Below, one piece after another: positions 12,501 through 63,158 of a stretch of DNA of 64,000 bases. Source of the stretch: a virus; the IMG/VR virus record IMGVR_UViG_3300025861_000007. One strand, 5' to 3'. The notes beneath the pieces are model-generated. The model saw only the letters and a program-made list of their open reading frames with translations, was not told the origin of the DNA and ran no database searches. The translations under genes and the position numbers were made by a program. How positions within the stretch are numbered: position 1 is the stretch's first letter; the number at the start of each line of letters is the position of its first letter.

Positions 12501-13823
12501 TTAAAACGAGATTTCTTCTAACTTACCTTCCACTTCAAAAGGGAATATTGGAATCCACTCCGTTATCTCATTGGCCATAGCTGGTTTACCACCTTCTTTT
12601 CTGTTTATAGCAATAGTGATATGTGGGTCTCTATTTTTAGTTACGAATTGAGTTTCAACTTTAACAGCAACCACCTTATCAGTATAACCAATATGTGTAA
12701 CCAACAAATCAAATGACTGTCCTAATAATGGTCTATATTCTTCCTTAAGAGGCCCCATATTGATTGTCATATGATGAGCTAATAACTCCCATTCACCCTT
12801 TCTTAAGGCCTTTTTTAGGTCTTTATCTGTAATTGCGTTATCAAAAATATAATTCATCATTTCAGTTTTAGTTTTGTTTGTTAAAACAATACCTGAATAA
12901 GCAATTTTTCTTTTTGATTCACTCATTATCTTTTGGAATTTTTCTTTCTCTAACCTATCTTTTTCAATACCAATTTCTTTACCCTTAAATCCTAACTTCA
13001 TTAATTCATCACCAGAAGTGGTAATACGATATCTTAAAAATGAATCAATTAACTTGTTTGGTAATCCCATGAACTGACCAAATGTTTTTAATGTTTCATC
13101 TTTCATTCTAATAGTATCAAACCTTTCACGTAATTTATAATGTGAACCACTTATTGTTTGATAGAATTTTATTAAGAAAGCAATCTCTCTCGCTTCTTCA
13201 GAAGTATACTTAAGATTGTTAACTAATGTTCTTTCAACCAATGTAGGGTCGTTACTTCTCAATAAAGAAGCTATAAGTACGATTGGATCCTTCGTCTCAA
13301 TCAAAGGTTCTGTTGATACAACTAACCTACCAAATATCCAATCCCAAAGGTTGTATTTAGTAATTAATTGAATGAAATAACCTACAGATTGTGATTGTTT
13401 AATACCTTTAATAAATTCATCCCTAATTCTTTCTTGAGATAATGAAAGACCATTCCCACTTACTGGCGTTTTATCTTTCTTTATTGCATTTTGTATATCT
13501 TCATCTAATTCGGAACCTACACGGGCAGCAAATCTAAACGCTCTAAGTATACGTAATTTATCTTCATCGAATCTCTCAGATGCTGAACCAACAGTACGAA
13601 CTACGTTTCTTTCAAGGTCACCAATACCACCAACTAAGTCAACTACTTCACCTTTATCGATATCATAGAAAAGAGCATTGATGGTTAAATCTCTACGTAA
13701 AACGTCTTGGTCTATTGAAGTAAATTCAACAGAATCAGGTCTTCTACCTGAACCAGTAAATTTCATGAATTCACTATACTCTTTAGGTAGTAATTCTTTA
13801 GCTATTTGTTCCCAGTTTTCCAT
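12501..13823 (-). CDS. cca: CCA-adding tRNA nucleotidyltransferase, C-terminal piece, fused to a 2H phosphoesterase
   Basis: GSGRRPDSVEF, RRDLTINALFYD, RFDEDKLRILRAFRFAAR; C-terminal HHMTI...PHITI pair. Confidence 0.85.
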   Translation of the reverse strand: MENWEQIAKELLPKEYSEFMKFTGSGRRPDSVEFTSIDQDVLRRDLTINALFYDIDKGEVVDLVGGIGDLERNVVRTVGSASERFDEDKLRILRAFRFAARVGSELDEDIQNAIKKDKTPVSGNGLSLSQERIRDEFIKGIKQSQSVGYFIQLITKYNLWDWIFGRLVVSTEPLIETKDPIVLIASLLRSNDPTLVERTLVNNLKYTSEEAREIAFLIKFYQTISGSHYKLRERFDTIRMKDETLKTFGQFMGLPNKLIDSFLRYRITTSGDELMKLGFKGKEIGIEKDRLEKEKFQKIMSESKRKIAYSGIVLTNKTKTEMMNYIFDNAITDKDLKKALRKGEWELLAHHMTINMGPLKEEYRPLLGQSFDLLVTHIGYTDKVVAVKVETQFVTKNRDPHITIAINRKEGGKPAMANEITEWIPIFPFEVEGKLEEISF

Positions 13824-14031
13824 TTTTATCTTGTTTAATAATTATATGTGAAGACCATCTATGTGGGAAACTACCAAAAGTGGCTAATTCACACTTTGTA
13901 TCTTCACTATATTCTTCAATAGTTTTATCTATTATATTACGTAATTCAATTAACGAACCCTCAAAGTTAAAAGTTCCATTAATAGTTAAATCACCATCTC
14001 TATTTATATAGGTTGTTTTATTTTCGTTCAT
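13798..14031 (-). CDS. Small hypothetical protein inside the cca insertion
   Basis: MNENKTTY start overlaps the endonuclease stop; 3' end overlaps the cca C-half start. Confidence 0.55.
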   Translation of the reverse strand: MNENKTTYINRDGDLTINGTFNFEGSLIELRNIIDKTIEEYSEDTKCELATFGSFPHRWSSHIIIKQDKNGKLGTNS

Positions 14032-14702
14032 TTTAATTTCCATTTATAACCACCACATTTATTTCTATTACCATTTATTACTGACCAAATATTACCTTGA
14101 CTTAAACCAAGATGTTCGGCAGCGTATTTAGCACTCCTCCACTCTTTTATCACCTTACCTTCTTTATCTAATTGTAAAACTGACTGTGCATTCCAACTCA
14201 CAGTACCCTTTTTACTTTCAGATATTTTTTTCTTTGTTTCTTCACTATGTTTAGATCCCTTATGTCTATTATTACCAATAAGTGATTTACTAATTTTATC
14301 TCTAAATTCTTTAGTCCTCATATGTGACCTATCCATTTTTTTAGAAACCTCAGATATTTTCCTTTTAGCCTCATCACTATGTTTATGACCCATAGAACCT
14401 ACATCACCACCGATTGTTAGATTAGTTAATTTATGTCCGTTATTTTTAAACTCACTAATCCAAAACACCTCACGTTCGTTTAAAATGTATAAATCACATT
14501 CTTCTAAAATTTCTATTTTAACATCGTTTAATAAACCCTTATCTCTTAAACCAATTAACCAGCTATTTTTATGGCTAATACTTTTATCAATATCATTTAA
14601 ATGTCGATATAATCTAACTTTAAGTTTTTGTATAGTTTTACCGATATATCTACATTCATTATTTGTTGGATCTATTAATTTGTAAATGTAACCTTTTTCC
14701 AT
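14028..14702 (-). CDS. GIY-YIG homing endonuclease
   Basis: GYIYKL...RYIGKT, EREVFWI, NUMOD3-like HSDEAKRKISE repeats, C-terminal NUMOD1-like HTH; own ATATTTAT promoter. Confidence 0.9.
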   Translation of the reverse strand: MEKGYIYKLIDPTNNECRYIGKTIQKLKVRLYRHLNDIDKSISHKNSWLIGLRDKGLLNDVKIEILEECDLYILNEREVFWISEFKNNGHKLTNLTIGGDVGSMGHKHSDEAKRKISEVSKKMDRSHMRTKEFRDKISKSLIGNNRHKGSKHSEETKKKISESKKGTVSWNAQSVLQLDKEGKVIKEWRSAKYAAEHLGLSQGNIWSVINGNRNKCGGYKWKLK

Positions 14703-14742
14703 GATATTTTATTTATAAATATCATGATATTTCTGAATGTAG

Positions 14743-15162
14743 TTATTTCATTTTTAGTTTCTCTAAAAATAGTTCATAACTACCGTTATTTAACGTTTTC
14801 AAATACACTAAAAAAGAACTCATACTTTTATCTTTAAAAGATAAATCACGTCTAAAAGTAGCTATTTCATACTGACCATCTTCGGTAACCACGTTAACAA
14901 TAGCAAACTGTTCACCCATATCAATGGTACGATACATACGTAACATAGATTTAACTTTATCTGGTGTTGCATCTGTGGCTAGGTCAAAATCTTTAGGTTG
15001 ATTACCCATTAATAAATCTCTAACAGCTCCACCAACAACGTATAATTCATGACCGTTTTCTTTAAAAATACGATTCATCCTTAATACGGATTCGGGTAAA
15101 TCCATACCTATCTTCTTTCTTACAATTTCCTCTTTCAATAAATTTCTAACCGTGTTCCTCAT
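14743..15162 (-). CDS. cca: CCA-adding tRNA nucleotidyltransferase, N-terminal piece
   Basis: YVVGGAVRDLLMG...KDFDLAT (catalytic DxD), YEIATFRRD, then a non-homologous 33-aa tail. Confidence 0.85.
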   Translation of the reverse strand: MRNTVRNLLKEEIVRKKIGMDLPESVLRMNRIFKENGHELYVVGGAVRDLLMGNQPKDFDLATDATPDKVKSMLRMYRTIDMGEQFAIVNVVTEDGQYEIATFRRDLSFKDKSMSSFLVYLKTLNNGSYELFLEKLKMK

Positions 15163-17994: not shown

Positions 17995-18002
17995 ATATTT
18001 AT
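17995..18002 (+). promoter_or_regulatory. Putative phage late promoter ATATTTAT (example; about 18 copies in the window)
   Basis: Sense-strand copies shortly upstream of starts: + at 4270, 6403, 15189, 21514, 22476, 24322, 55489, 62432; - at 14715, 17922, 28144, 31712, 48390, 52573, 56658, 58416, 62164. Confidence 0.7.
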
Positions 18003-18004
18003 AT

Positions 18005-18167
18005 GACGGAGCGCTGCAAAGAATATATTAAAGCAAGGAATAAACATATTGTCTGGTTGTGGGATGCAGTCGGACACAAAACAAAAACAGGAGGAGGCGT
18101 TACCATTAGGTGAGTCTATGATTCCTGAAGCCCAACCTATCGCCTCTGGCGTGGGTGGGTAGTTCAC
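18005..18167 (+). mobile_element. Internally deleted IS200/IS605 element (tnpB 3' end / omegaRNA region)
   Basis: Starts GACGGAGCG; encodes TnpB tail AAKNILKQG...SGCGMQSD...EAQPIASGVGG*; ends TAGTTCAC. Confidence 0.8.
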
Positions 18168-18224
18168 TAATGAAATCTTGCACCTAATGTGCAAGTGATA
18201 ACCATTAAAAAGAAAAAATAGAAA

Positions 18225-19649
18225 ATGGCAAAAGAAAAAAAATCAATTATTGAGGAAGCTCTTCTTGAGGCTGAACAAATTGACGCCACTTTCAAATCTA
18301 ACGCAAAAGAAATACTAGCTCATACAATGAGTTCAGAAATTGAAGAAATGGTAAAGGAATCATTAACTGGTTCGAAAAAAAGAAGATTGAAAGAAGACGA
18401 AGAGGAAGAAGAAACAGATTTAAACCTTGATTTAGATTCTGACGAAGGTTCTGAAGATTTAGACCTAGATATTGACACTGAAGAAGGTGACGATGAAGGT
18501 GCTGAAGATTTAGACTTAGACGATGAATCTGAAGATGGTGAAGAAACTGAGGAAGATGAGTTGGATTTAGATTCTGATGATGAAGGTACTGAAGATGATT
18601 TAGACCTTGATTTAGGAGGAGAAGAAGACTTTGACCTTGGTGGTCTTGACTTAGGTGGTGAAGAACTTGAGGGTGGTATGGATGTCGACACTGTAGATCT
18701 TACAGGTGCTAGTGACTCCGATGTAATCTCCGTTTTTAAGAAAATGGGCCCAGAGGATGAAATCGAAGTTGTTAACGACAACGGTATGGTTACTCTCAAA
18801 GACAACAAATCTGGTTCTGAATATAGAATCGAACTTAACACTGGAGCAGGTGTTCCTTCAGTAGAAACTGAAGAACTTCAACTTGGTGAAAGTGAAGAAG
18901 AAGTAGATTCTGAAGAGGTTATCTATGAAATCGAAGTAGATGATGAGGATGAAATGTCTGACTATATGGAAATGGAAGACGATATGTCTTACATGAATAT
19001 GGGAAGTGAAGATTACATGTACAATGAACACCCAGTTTCCGATGAAGATGCGGTTAACGCAATGGGTCGTGAAGATGAAATGTCTGACTACATGTCACGT
19101 ACTTCTTATAATCAAGGACCTAACAACAAGCCTTTCCACAGAGAAGAGGGTACTGGTCATAGAAGAACTCCATACACAGGATTGGGTGAATCTACAAACC
19201 TTAAGACTCAAAAACTCATCAAAGAAAATACAAACTTAAATGTTAAAAATTCAACTCTTGAAAGTGAGAATAAAGAATTAAAAGAAAACCACGAAAAAAT
19301 GGTGGACGCTTTAAAACAATTCAGAAAGAAACTTCAAGAAGTGGCTGTGTTCAACAGCAATCTTACTTACGCTGTAAGACTATTCACTGAAAATTCAACT
19401 ACAAAAGAAGAAAAGAATGAAATTCTTAAAAGATTAGATTCTGCTAAGACTTTAAAGGAATCTCAATCTATTTATAAGCAACTTGTTAAAGAATATTCAA
19501 ATGGTAAAGCTCCTATTAAGGAATCTGTTGAAGAAAAAATAAACAAGACTGCAACTAGTGGTTCTGCACAAATCAGTGAACAAAGCGTTTTTGTACACCC
19601 TGAGTTACAAAGTATGAAGAAACTTTGGGAATATAGTTACAAAAAATAA
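18225..19649 (+). CDS. Prohead scaffold/core protein
   Basis: Very acidic, C-terminal coiled coil, lies between protease and capsid gene. Confidence 0.8.
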   Translation: MAKEKKSIIEEALLEAEQIDATFKSNAKEILAHTMSSEIEEMVKESLTGSKKRRLKEDEEEEETDLNLDLDSDEGSEDLDLDIDTEEGDDEGAEDLDLDDESEDGEETEEDELDLDSDDEGTEDDLDLDLGGEEDFDLGGLDLGGEELEGGMDVDTVDLTGASDSDVISVFKKMGPEDEIEVVNDNGMVTLKDNKSGSEYRIELNTGAGVPSVETEELQLGESEEEVDSEEVIYEIEVDDEDEMSDYMEMEDDMSYMNMGSEDYMYNEHPVSDEDAVNAMGREDEMSDYMSRTSYNQGPNNKPFHREEGTGHRRTPYTGLGESTNLKTQKLIKENTNLNVKNSTLESENKELKENHEKMVDALKQFRKKLQEVAVFNSNLTYAVRLFTENSTTKEEKNEILKRLDSAKTLKESQSIYKQLVKEYSNGKAPIKESVEEKINKTATSGSAQISEQSVFVHPELQSMKKLWEYSYKK

Positions 19650-19683: not shown

Positions 19684-21426
19684 ATGGGATATTTATTAAA
19701 ATCAGGTGAGGTTGGAAATATCGGATTAAAACACCAAAAGGCTATCCGTGAGGCAACCGTAAACAAATGGGATTCATTAGGATTCCTAGAAGGTCTTGAA
19801 GGCCACATCAGAGAGAACATCGCTTTGTTATATGAAAACCAAGCATCAGTTCTTATTAACGAATCTACACAAGCTACTGGTGGTCAATCTACTGGTTCTT
19901 TCGAAACTGTAGTATTCCCTATCATAAGACGTGTGTTCTCTAAATTATTAGCTAACGACATCGTATCAGTTCAAGCATTGAACTTACCTATCGGTAAATT
20001 ATTCTACTTCATCCCTAAAACGGCTGATAGAAACGTTGACGGTACACACGATTCAATGTTCGTAGCAAACTGTGTTAACTGTTCTGAGTCTACATTCTCA
20101 GATTGTATGAAGAATCTTTACGATATTTTCTACAACGATGGTATGTATGATAACTCTAAAGGTGCTATCACAGTAGTAGCTGCTACAGGTACAGCAGTAA
20201 CTTGGACAGCTTGTACAACAGGTCATACCATGGAATTTGCAGCAGGTAAAACTCCAGCAGCAACTGACGGTACATTACGTCACCAAATCATCGAAGTTAA
20301 AGGTTTCTCTTCTTCAGCTCCTGGTCGTTTAATCGGTCCTGATGGAAATGAAATGGATACAGAATCTTTCTTAGCTTCATTAACTGTTGTAGCTAACGCT
20401 AACATCCTTGACCCAGATGGTCAAACTATCTTGTCAGTAGGTGACACAGTTCCTTTCCGTTTAGTAGCTCAAAAATACGGTAGAGGTATCGTAGATTACG
20501 GTGATATTTGTTCTCCTGATGGAAAACTTTACATCGAAATCGATTTAACTCACCCAACTTGTGTTTCTTGTTCAAGAAACACATTCGATGGATACATCGG
20601 TGCTAACTATACAGCAACAACAATCAACAACTCTAGTATGTTAATCACTTTCAGACAGTACGCTGACCTTGAAATGGAAGACAGAATGGGTGAAGTAACT
20701 TTCGAACTTGAATCTGTAACTGTATCTGTTACTGAACGTAAGTTGAGAGCTACATGGACTCCTGAATTAGCTCAAGACGTTAGTGCATTCCACAACATTG
20801 ATGCTGAGGCAGAATTAACAGCATTGTTATCTGAACAAATTGCAGCTGAAATCGACCGTGAAATCTTGATGGATTTACGTAAAGGTGCAGCATGGCAATT
20901 ACGTTGGGATTACAACGGTTGGAAGCGTTTACCAAACAACAATGGTTACACTCAAAAAGATTGGAACCAAACGTTGATGACAGCTATCAACCAAATTTCA
21001 GCTCAAATCCACAAAGCTACATTGAGAGGTGGTGCTAACTTCGTAGTTGTATCTTCTGAAGTATCAGCAGTATTCGATGATTTAGAATACTTCCACGTAT
21101 CAAACGCAGCTCCTGAGCAAGACCAATATAACATGGGTATCGAAAGAGTTGGTTCATTAAGCGGTCGTTACACTGTTTACCGTGACCCATATTCTCCTTC
21201 TTACTCTGTGTTAATCGGACACAAAGGTAAGTCATTGTTAGACACTGGTTACATCTACGCTCCATACGTACCGATGCAGTTGACTCCTACAATGTACAAT
21301 CCGTTCAACTTCGTACCTGTTAAAGGTATCATGACTCGTTACGCTAAAAAAATGGTCAATAACCGCTTCTACGGGCATATCCGTGTAGATGGTTTAAGAA
21401 CATTTGACGTAAGAGAATTAAGATAA
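19684..21426 (+). CDS. Major capsid protein (T4 gp23-like)
   Basis: RKLRATWTPELAQD, IDAEAELTALLSEQIAAEIDREIL, YIYAPYVP, GIMTRY. Confidence 0.96.
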   Translation: MGYLLKSGEVGNIGLKHQKAIREATVNKWDSLGFLEGLEGHIRENIALLYENQASVLINESTQATGGQSTGSFETVVFPIIRRVFSKLLANDIVSVQALNLPIGKLFYFIPKTADRNVDGTHDSMFVANCVNCSESTFSDCMKNLYDIFYNDGMYDNSKGAITVVAATGTAVTWTACTTGHTMEFAAGKTPAATDGTLRHQIIEVKGFSSSAPGRLIGPDGNEMDTESFLASLTVVANANILDPDGQTILSVGDTVPFRLVAQKYGRGIVDYGDICSPDGKLYIEIDLTHPTCVSCSRNTFDGYIGANYTATTINNSSMLITFRQYADLEMEDRMGEVTFELESVTVSVTERKLRATWTPELAQDVSAFHNIDAEAELTALLSEQIAAEIDREILMDLRKGAAWQLRWDYNGWKRLPNNNGYTQKDWNQTLMTAINQISAQIHKATLRGGANFVVVSSEVSAVFDDLEYFHVSNAAPEQDQYNMGIERVGSLSGRYTVYRDPYSPSYSVLIGHKGKSLLDTGYIYAPYVPMQLTPTMYNPFNFVPVKGIMTRYAKKMVNNRFYGHIRVDGLRTFDVRELR

Positions 21427-25071: not shown

Positions 25072-25114
25072 TCAATAGACTTTACATAGGGAAATGTGTT
25101 TGTATTTTTATAAA

Positions 25115-25327
25115 GACGGAGCGTAAAACCAAACCATCTTTAGTGGTTTGGATGTAAGCGACAAAATTTGTATATTTGCATTGTCAGTATAAGACATTAA
25201 AACCTCGTAAGGGACTTGCGAGTACACGAGTGGAGCAAAAATAAGACTTCTAACTTCTTCGGAAGCAGTAAGCACAAGCTATGAAACTCGAAGCACATTC
25301 ATCACGAAGTGTGGATGTGTAGTTCAC
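25115..25327 (+). mobile_element. Miniature non-autonomous IS200/IS605 derivative
   Basis: Left end GACGGAGCG plus hairpin CCAAACCA-TCTTTAG-TGGTTTGG; TnpB-tail-like GTCEYTSGAKIRL; right end TAGTTCAC. Confidence 0.75.
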
Positions 25328-47689: not shown

Positions 47690-48373
47690 TTATAACATTA
47701 AGTCATTATTAGGTGTTTTAATTATCCATTTAATTTTTTGTTTTTCTGATATTTTATTTTTAGCGTTTTCTGTATGTCTATATTTTTTATTCTTTTCTGA
47801 TAAAATTTTTTTAGATTTTTCTGTATGAGATTTACCCTTCATCCAAGGTGTTTGACCTTTTTTAGATACACTAATTTTATTTTTAGTCTCTTGTGATAGT
47901 CCCCTACCTTTTATAGAGTGTGGTTTACCTTTTTTGGATTCACTGATTTTTTTCTTGGTTTCTTCAGATAACGGTTTTAATTTTCTATTTTTTAATTTTT
48001 TACTAATTTTTTTCTTAGTCTCTTCTGAGATTATAACAATTTTACCTTTATTAGATTTACTAATTTTATTTTTAGTATCTTCTGAATGTTTTTTCCCTAA
48101 CATAGGTGAACCACCATCACCGCCGTTAGATATGTTATACCCTATTTTAGGGTTTTGTGAGTTAAGTTTTTCTATCCAAAATGTTTCACGTTCATTTAAT
48201 TTTTTACGTGTATCACAATACTCAATTATCTCTTTTTTAAAATTTTCTATACCATATTTTTTTATAGCTCTTTTTAATTTTATTCCAGAACCTAAGTATT
48301 TTGGGTTGTTTTTGACATCCTTGCCAATATAAAATTTATTATTCAATAAATTAGTTGTTTTATATATAACCAT
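47690..48373 (-). CDS. GIY-YIG homing endonuclease (probable +1 frameshift near 3' end, extension to 47572)
   Basis: MVIYKTTN..NNKFYIGK, YLGSG, ERETFWI, repeated SEETKKKISE. Confidence 0.88.
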   Translation of the reverse strand: MVIYKTTNLLNNKFYIGKDVKNNPKYLGSGIKLKRAIKKYGIENFKKEIIEYCDTRKKLNERETFWIEKLNSQNPKIGYNISNGGDGGSPMLGKKHSEDTKNKISKSNKGKIVIISEETKKKISKKLKNRKLKPLSEETKKKISESKKGKPHSIKGRGLSQETKNKISVSKKGQTPWMKGKSHTEKSKKILSEKNKKYRHTENAKNKISEKQKIKWIIKTPNNDLML

Positions 48374-62404: not shown

Positions 62405-62444
62405 AAATTTTGTCCTAATCAGTATGCCCACATATTTATATAAT

Positions 62445-63158
62445 ATGAAAGGTGTGTACTTAATTAAAAATATTAAAACAGGAAAAGTCTATATTGGTTC
62501 TAGTATTAAGTTAGAGGCTAGGGAACAAAGACACTTTAAAAATTTAATAGATGGTAATCACCATTCTAATAAATTACAAAATTCATATAATAAATACGGT
62601 AAAGATTTTTTTATTTTTGAATCTATTGAAGAGTATGAAGAAATAGATAACAATAAGTTAATTCAAAGGGAACAATATTGGATTGATTATTATAACAGTT
62701 ACAATAATGGTTATAATTGTAGACCTAAAGCTGAAAATAATTATGGACATGAACACTCTGAAGAAACTAAAAAATTAATGTCTAAATTACATAGCGGTAA
62801 AAATAATGCTATGTATGGTAGGAAATTATCTGAAGAAACTAAAGAAAAAATTAGACAAAAGATGTTGGGGAGATTTGTTAGTGAAGAAACTAAAGAAAAA
62901 AAGAGAAAGATTGCGTTAAATAGAAAACACTCTAAAAAAACTAAACTTAAACAAAGTAGAATTAAAAAATCAAAACCAATATTACAATTAGATAAAAATT
63001 TTAAGATAGTGAAAGAGTGGTATTCTAAACGTGAGCCTTTACGTGAATTGGGTGTTAGAGTAGATTACGTGGTTAAAAGTAAAAATAAATTTTCTAAGGG
63101 TTTCTATTGGGTATATAAAAATGAATATGAATTATTTTTTAAAAATAGAACTAATTAA
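62445..63158 (+). CDS. GIY-YIG homing endonuclease
   Basis: MKGVYLIKN..TGKVYIGSS, REQYWID, NUMOD3 repeats; ATATTTAT at 62432. Confidence 0.9.
   Translation: MKGVYLIKNIKTGKVYIGSSIKLEAREQRHFKNLIDGNHHSNKLQNSYNKYGKDFFIFESIEEYEEIDNNKLIQREQYWIDYYNSYNNGYNCRPKAENNYGHEHSEETKKLMSKLHSGKNNAMYGRKLSEETKEKIRQKMLGRFVSEETKEKKRKIALNRKHSKKTKLKQSRIKKSKPILQLDKNFKIVKEWYSKREPLRELGVRVDYVVKSKNKFSKGFYWVYKNEYELFFKNRTN

Follow-up and report, generated by a model that had tools for sequence, protein, structure and literature searches.

Stand-alone omegaRNA mini-elements related to IS605 transposons have already been published. Cutting of empty alleles by TnpB, followed by homing repair, is established for IS605 TnpBs (PMC10055086), and omegaRNAs encoded by PATEs have been described as being acted on in trans (PMC10055086; PMC10691335). 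TnpB trims only the 5' end of its RNA and tolerates 3' padding (PMC10278001). With respect to transposition, the left guide captures the target by base pairing, and IS608 synapses assemble from separate left- and right-end oligonucleotides (PMC5934647; PMC3201880); in vivo, excision was lost once the left end had been scrambled, the left hairpin and guide being needed in cis (PMC10055086). For comparable elements of Haloquadratum, it could not be decided whether they are mobile or arise by repeated deletion (PMC3119063). Here we describe a mini-element from the window, i.e., the whole 64-kb stretch of viral DNA that was analyzed, whose oddity relative to the published cases is a hairpin-less left junction recurring at three sites. 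Most probably, it arose recently by deletion within a phage-borne IS605 and is now a selfish, non-autonomous element whose sole product is a stand-alone omegaRNA served in trans.

The window comes from a large T4-like phage, with genes for the terminase, portal, prohead protease, and gp23-type capsid, and the sequencing runs bearing it were sampled from activated sludge, biofilm, digesters, and wastewater; runs that shared few words with it were set aside. The mini-element is flanked by a minus-strand gene for an SprT-like protein and by the acidic gene at 18225 ahead of the capsid gene (Table 1). No tnpB or tnpA gene occurs within the window, the mini-element has no match among GenBank phages in either DNA or protein searches, an Rfam search recovered no relevant family, and its junction is absent from the GTDB genomes searched. 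The GTDB search recovered related minis with other left parts in Algoriphagus resistens, a weak pointer to a Bacteroidota host. The chromosome of A. resistens NH1 carries six remnants (L321-L326) with a near-identical omegaRNA core, several of them without tnpB. Elsewhere in the window (12501-15162), a poly(A)-polymerase/CCA-type nucleotidyltransferase is split into two pieces (440 and 139 aa) by a gene for a GIY-YIG endonuclease together with a small ORF (Pfam labels taken from L334). Further, GIY-YIG/NUMOD3 homing endonuclease genes lie directly 3' of a ATATTTAT-type motif at 14028-14702, 47690-48373, and 62424-63158, and several of these fall in strain-variable gaps relative to G001/G002.

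Table 1. Features of the mini-element locus and its surroundings, in window coordinates.
Feature	Position	Strand	Basis or remark
Promoter-like motif ATATTTAT of the phage, native and probably late	17995..18002	+	Kept by the insertion
TAM / left cleavage site TTTAT	17998..18002	+	Family sites and empty alleles
Whole mini-element, 165 bp, no target-site duplication	18003..18167	+	Empty alleles; parent comparison
Left-end stub (IS605 left end, nt 1-10)	18003..18012	+	Identical in L078, L202, L331, L358
Last 49 tnpB codons and stop	18013..18162	+	Codons 18013-18159, then TAG
omegaRNA scaffold, about 118 nt	18050..18167	+	Covariation; ISDra2-like geometry
Stem 1	18050-18076	+	Part of omegaRNA scaffold
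Pseudoknot	18062-18065 with 18162-18165	+	Stem-1 loop pairs with last bases
Stem 2/3	18088-18127	+	Part of omegaRNA scaffold
Right-end hairpin	18130-18160	+	Followed by TEM TCAC
Guide (native flank)	18168..18187	+	Identical to sequence after TTTAT in empty alleles
Native leader hairpin, scaffold mRNA	18177..18195	+	Same place, different sequence in most relatives
Acidic 474-aa gene, putative prohead scaffold	18225..19649	+	Inferred from position; no family match
T4 gp23-like major capsid protein	19684..21426	+	PHROG 138, E 1.8e-63; Pfam Gp23
Second, canonical mini (216 bp) of this IS family, with its left hairpin	25112..25327	+	Precise insertion; empty in L001

The limits of the element are given by empty alleles. 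The closest scaffold relative (L001) runs straight from TTTAT into the sequence at 18168, the site is likewise empty in L349-L351, and in runs X4 and X13, from two further, independent studies, 18002 is joined to 18168 with exactly 165 bases skipped. Because these alleles join 18002 to 18168, the borders of the element are 18003 and 18167, and the insertion is an exact one of 165 bp immediately 3' of TTTAT. As in IS200/IS605 derivatives generally, it lies 3' of a conserved 4-5-nt motif without duplication and has ends homologous to those of an autonomous element. The filled allele is carried by run X2 and contig L334, which possibly come from the same sampling campaign as the window, and presence and absence are polymorphic among strains about 98% identical around the insertion site. 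None of 33 related scaffold-gene loci (0/33) shows this insertion upstream, and neither TnpB nor omegaRNA was found in a 96%-complete related genome. The insertion in the head-gene promoter is recent and polymorphic. Chimeric assembly from IS repeats could in principle yield a similar arrangement, and sample contigs are demonstrably chimeric across IS right ends (L331-L333, L035); however, empty alleles fix both borders, run X2 has the left junction on one contig together with 700 flanking bases and likewise has the right end joined to its flank on a single contig, L334 shows the same structure, and an identical junction recurs at a second site (site B below) in several assemblies. Such an origin is scarcely credible.

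The parent is a 1,786-bp IS605 (L331/L358) with divergent Y1 tnpA and tnpB genes, both intact, on co-occurring phage contigs; its TnpB (P0001) was reached by searching with a partial TnpB. The mini-element corresponds to parent nt 1-10 joined to nt 1632-1786, with a 1-nt microhomology at the junction, and is identical to the parent at 155 of 165 bases. All 10 differences lie in one stem, keep its pairing, and match another IS subtype; these positions mark the copy in the window as a mosaic whose stem 2 derives from that other subtype. In full elements, the 10-nt start is followed by TAAAAC and a hairpin, both of which are deleted from the mini-element along with the left guide, leaving only 10-11 nt of the left end. 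The right-end hairpin is present with its guide (GAAG, preceding it) and TEM (TCAC, at the end), and the palindromes near both termini seen in canonical PATEs are reduced to this one, as the left hairpin and left guide are missing. The tnpB remnant has no in-frame start codon of its own before 18064 and no intact domain, and its 49 residues match the C-termini of full-length (~400-aa) IS605 TnpBs at up to about 90%.

An earlier note on this DNA had correctly placed the blocks ATATTTATAT (17995-18004), GACGGAGCG (18005-18013), the tnpB-like codons, and TAGTTCAC (18160-18167), and its recognition of an intact omegaRNA on an orphaned 3' end of tnpB agrees with the C-terminal match and the covarying scaffold. 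The element starts at 18003, and the final AT of ATATTTATAT plus GACGGAGC are not phage DNA but bases 1-10 of the IS605 left end, such that GACGGAGCG is, by sequence identity, IS605 left-end DNA. The last 155 bases are indeed kept, as it had said of the right end, but the conserved omegaRNA scaffold within them measures about 118 nt. It did not recognize an IS605 deletion derivative with defined limits, placed where it is by the TTTAT target motif. As to a partner in trans, which it had envisaged as a TnpB or a TldR, neither gene is found in the 64-kb window, but an intact cognate TnpB is encoded on the co-occurring phage contigs. This protein is a close homolog of ISDra2 TnpB (E 2e-73) and has intact RuvC residues (D209/E293/D375); its sequence marks it as a nuclease and not a TldR, which speaks against the proposed TldR guide.

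Empty alleles, the parent element, and covariation carry the case for the element and its scaffold; the single-sequence fold alone is not significant (z -1.5). Across 24 aligned relatives, 95.5% of cells are paired and 15 pairs show two-sided changes, a result reached by 0/500 shuffles, with slid controls at 33-46%; because the aligned sequences share ancestry and one of them supplied the structure, this score is not a probability. The conservation of the scaffold may reflect only the youth of the insertion. The locus has the makeup of a stand-alone omegaRNA: a complete scaffold with its pseudoknot, no effector in cis, and a guide taken from the flank that matches a TAM-adjacent target. That target is the empty allele, whose existence in relatives and match to the guide had both been anticipated: behind the TAM, identity to the guide is 20/20 in L001 and 17/20 in L349-L351. 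No further TAM-plus-guide site is present in the window, and the empty allele is the sole TAM-adjacent match of the guide. The leader hairpin of the scaffold mRNA, by its recurrence among relatives, predates the insertion, and guide positions 10-16 are predicted to be paired into it (predicted unpaired probability 0.03). Because TnpB trims the 5' end only and tolerates 3' padding, the guide RNA could be functional while attached to the mRNA, with the leader hairpin as a caveat.

The TAM coincides with part of a phage promoter-like motif. TTTAT precedes 77 of the 79 distinct left-end sites of the IS family and is the core of ATATTTAT, such that insertion preserves the motif and gives ATATTTATA. 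The motif itself occurs 28 times in the window, in 17 cases within 30 nt of a same-strand ORF start (2.25% expected), and it is found upstream of the terminase and prohead protease genes. A version of it, [AC]TATTTAT, precedes the scaffold gene in all 20 relatives checked, consistent with the earlier placement of the element behind a promoter motif. It is probably late, given the genes it serves; a sigma-70 scan detected no promoter, and a literature search on the motif returned nothing relevant. The overlap of the TAM with the promoter core is enough to explain the insertion position and largely accounts for it. A general preference of the IS family for the motif was considered and set aside as weak (7/77 sites against a background of 4-5%, p 0.04-0.11). 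The same promoter-like motif is also located within 25 nt of the start in 15 of the 24 distinct phage-borne tnpB upstream regions of the family (L040, L043, L052, L078, L086-L088, L202, L327, and others; shuffle mean 0.9, maximum 6, the sequences being related and not independent). This arrangement suggests an adaptation of the IS to phage transcription, and TnpB and the RNA of the mini-element would therefore share their timing. In L043/L044, a 1-base deletion in the right end lets tnpB read through into the downstream gene to give a 637-aa fusion.

The position between promoter motif and head genes, with the leader extended from 57 to 222 nt, might evoke a domesticated regulator, whose RNA would guide a TldR or act as a 5' UTR switch of the scaffold/capsid operon, the latter role having also been put forward in the earlier note. 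We consider this highly improbable: the insertion varies between strains of ~98% identity and is missing from all the related scaffold loci and from the nearly complete relative, the cognate TnpB retains its catalytic residues with no RuvC-dead counterpart in the window, the guide is simply the element's own flank and finds a TAM-adjacent match only in the empty allele, and the predicted accessibility of the start region is hardly altered (0.67 vs 0.75).

The identical junction is found at three unrelated TTTAT sites, viz., the window (site A), site B, and site D, two of which have proven empty alleles. Site B, whose copy is identical to the 3' end of the parent, is filled in L034 and other assemblies and empty in L093-L095 and L341-L347; at site D (L091), the contig ends inside the element. 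Neither a hairpin-bearing left end nor a full-length element was seen at sites A, B, or D, and a degenerate junction scan uncovered no further viral sites. Two other candidates were discarded: site C (L057), taken for a fourth mini, is the right end of the full-length parent, and site F, taken for a promoter capture, proved to be a tnpB shortened in frame with the promoter of the IS itself still in place and was left out of the count. After the right end at site B, 17-18 bases are swapped with length unchanged in L035:3156-3173 (also L090, L092); guide reprogramming is the less likely explanation, since the 17 nt are the right flank of the L354 IS copy in the same assembly and occur in one assembly only, making the swap a probable artefact. 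About 120-260 bases upstream of the site-D junction, a tRNA cluster in L091 includes a GC-rich non-coding stretch that may be structured, and an Rfam search of this locus returned one tRNA only. More widely, the 81 sites of the family include 15 terminal-only minis of 47-53 bp and 11 hairpin-bearing ones of 210-356 bp. The terminal-only forms consist of the left start, one hairpin, and the right end (L226, L246-L248, L257, L267, L275, L277, L290, L297, L302, L308, L311, L312), with two identical copies in L302. The canonical mini at 25112-25327 has a Bacteroidota-type promoter-like box, a different omegaRNA-like interior, and near-identical copies in L280 and L284.

Several routes could have brought the hairpin-less form to its three sites. 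Independent identical deletions are unlikely because the junction has just 1 nt of microhomology. Full-length copies already in place could plausibly have been altered by gene conversion, since mosaic copies exist, although the left homology is just 16-19 nt and no intermediate was seen; we rank this route somewhat ahead of mobilization in trans with a borrowed left end. The latter is chemically conceivable because the left guide base-pairs with the target and the ends of IS608 synapse as separate oligonucleotides. In its specific form, a one-hairpin derivative would be excised and inserted at TTTAT by a TnpA dimer, with a full-length copy supplying the left end in trans, and would persist mainly where a TAM-bearing phage promoter drives the omegaRNA, a tentative proposal that we think somewhat unlikely to hold. 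Two of the three junction sites follow ATATTTAT, as opposed to 7/77 hairpin-bearing elements (Fisher p 0.03, in a tiny sample). If the proposal were true, the left hairpin would be dispensable in cis and an upstream TAM would suffice to make any right end mobilizable.

For the preferred reading, that of a selfish derivative served in trans, we propose the following sequence of events. The phage promoter, its core supplying the TAM, would transcribe the element, which would lengthen the 5' leader of the scaffold/capsid mRNA; TnpB from a full-length copy would bind this RNA, trim its 5' end, and cut TTTAT-plus-guide empty alleles, either after excision or in co-infecting relatives, whereupon recombination would copy the insert back by homing repair. 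The single RNA-labelled run analyzed (X17) showed no coverage of the flanks of the element. The targeting of empty alleles in trans, raised in the earlier note, is plausible as a known behavior of such elements. The best reading is that the element is tolerated, not used, by the phage, and any drive is weak or young, because empty alleles are common. Neither the parent nor the site-B contigs overlap the window, and extension from the window ends did not reach the parent contig; we infer that they belong to the same phage lineage from the shared sample series, homologs in scaffold-bearing relatives, and the depth of the element in run X2 (58.7 in its interior vs 15-16 on the flanks), with contigs chimeric across IS right ends limiting the pairing of flanks. 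The element could instead be an inert relic: a full-length IS605 would have inserted, deletion or conversion would have removed most of it, restored head-gene expression would have been favored, and the remaining RNA would lie idle. This accords with the loss of the left hairpin and guide, required in cis for excision in published assays (PMC10055086), with the mosaic nature of the window copy, which implies that recombination among copies happens, and with the predicted partial hiding of the guide by the leader hairpin. Yet the scaffold is complete, 10/10 changes keep pairing, related remnants behind a promoter tend to be trimmed close to where stem 1 begins, and no full-length element is seen at any of the three sites; we thus judge a relic to be distinctly unlikely.

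With an essential phage promoter present in both filled and empty form and its parent IS605 identified, the locus offers a natural test pair for whether an omegaRNA served in trans drives its own spread between phages. Further, the occurrence of the hairpin-less junction at three sites questions the need for the left hairpin in cis in IS200/IS605 transposition, and the TAM of this IS family is the core of a phage promoter motif that also lies ahead of many of its own tnpB genes.

Among known systems, the PATE-like minimal IS200/IS605 elements of Geobacillus stearothermophilus (Meers et al. 2023, PMC10055086) are likewise protein-free and IS605-derived, and they share with the mini-element the location 3' of a TAM (TTTAT, as for ISGst2), the TTCAC end, the lack of duplication, and an omegaRNA needing TnpB in trans. 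Unlike them, it has its left-end hairpin and guide deleted, lacks a promoter of its own, and is phage-borne inside a phage promoter. Mobilized omegaRNAs that stand alone in OMEGA systems (Altae-Tran et al. 2023, PMC10691335) likewise lack effector and transposase and have a flank-derived guide; in comparison, the trans function of the mini-element is putative and three sites are known. The Haloquadratum PATEs and terminal-only core deletions (PMC3119063) are also core-deleted IS605 derivatives with strain-specific insertions, but those deletions lie between 19-22-bp repeats and leave a fused palindrome with both ends, whereas here there is a 1-nt microhomology and the whole omegaRNA is kept. 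The ISDra2 omegaRNA/reRNA (PMC10097598) has a scaffold of 116 nt against about 118 nt, both with a right-end hairpin, and its pseudoknot pair G-105:C-3 corresponds to G-106:C-3; its TAM is TTGAT in place of TTTAT, and the mini-element is not linked to a tnpB ORF in cis. TldR-omegaRNA repressors (PMC10705468) share with it a TnpB-type guide RNA in a phage and near a promoter; relative to them, it has transposon ends and an empty site, its guide targets that site, and no nuclease-dead partner was found for it. With a single palindrome, it falls outside the two-palindrome PATE definition (PMC3119063), and its class is that of a stand-alone omegaRNA IS605 derivative without the left hairpin.
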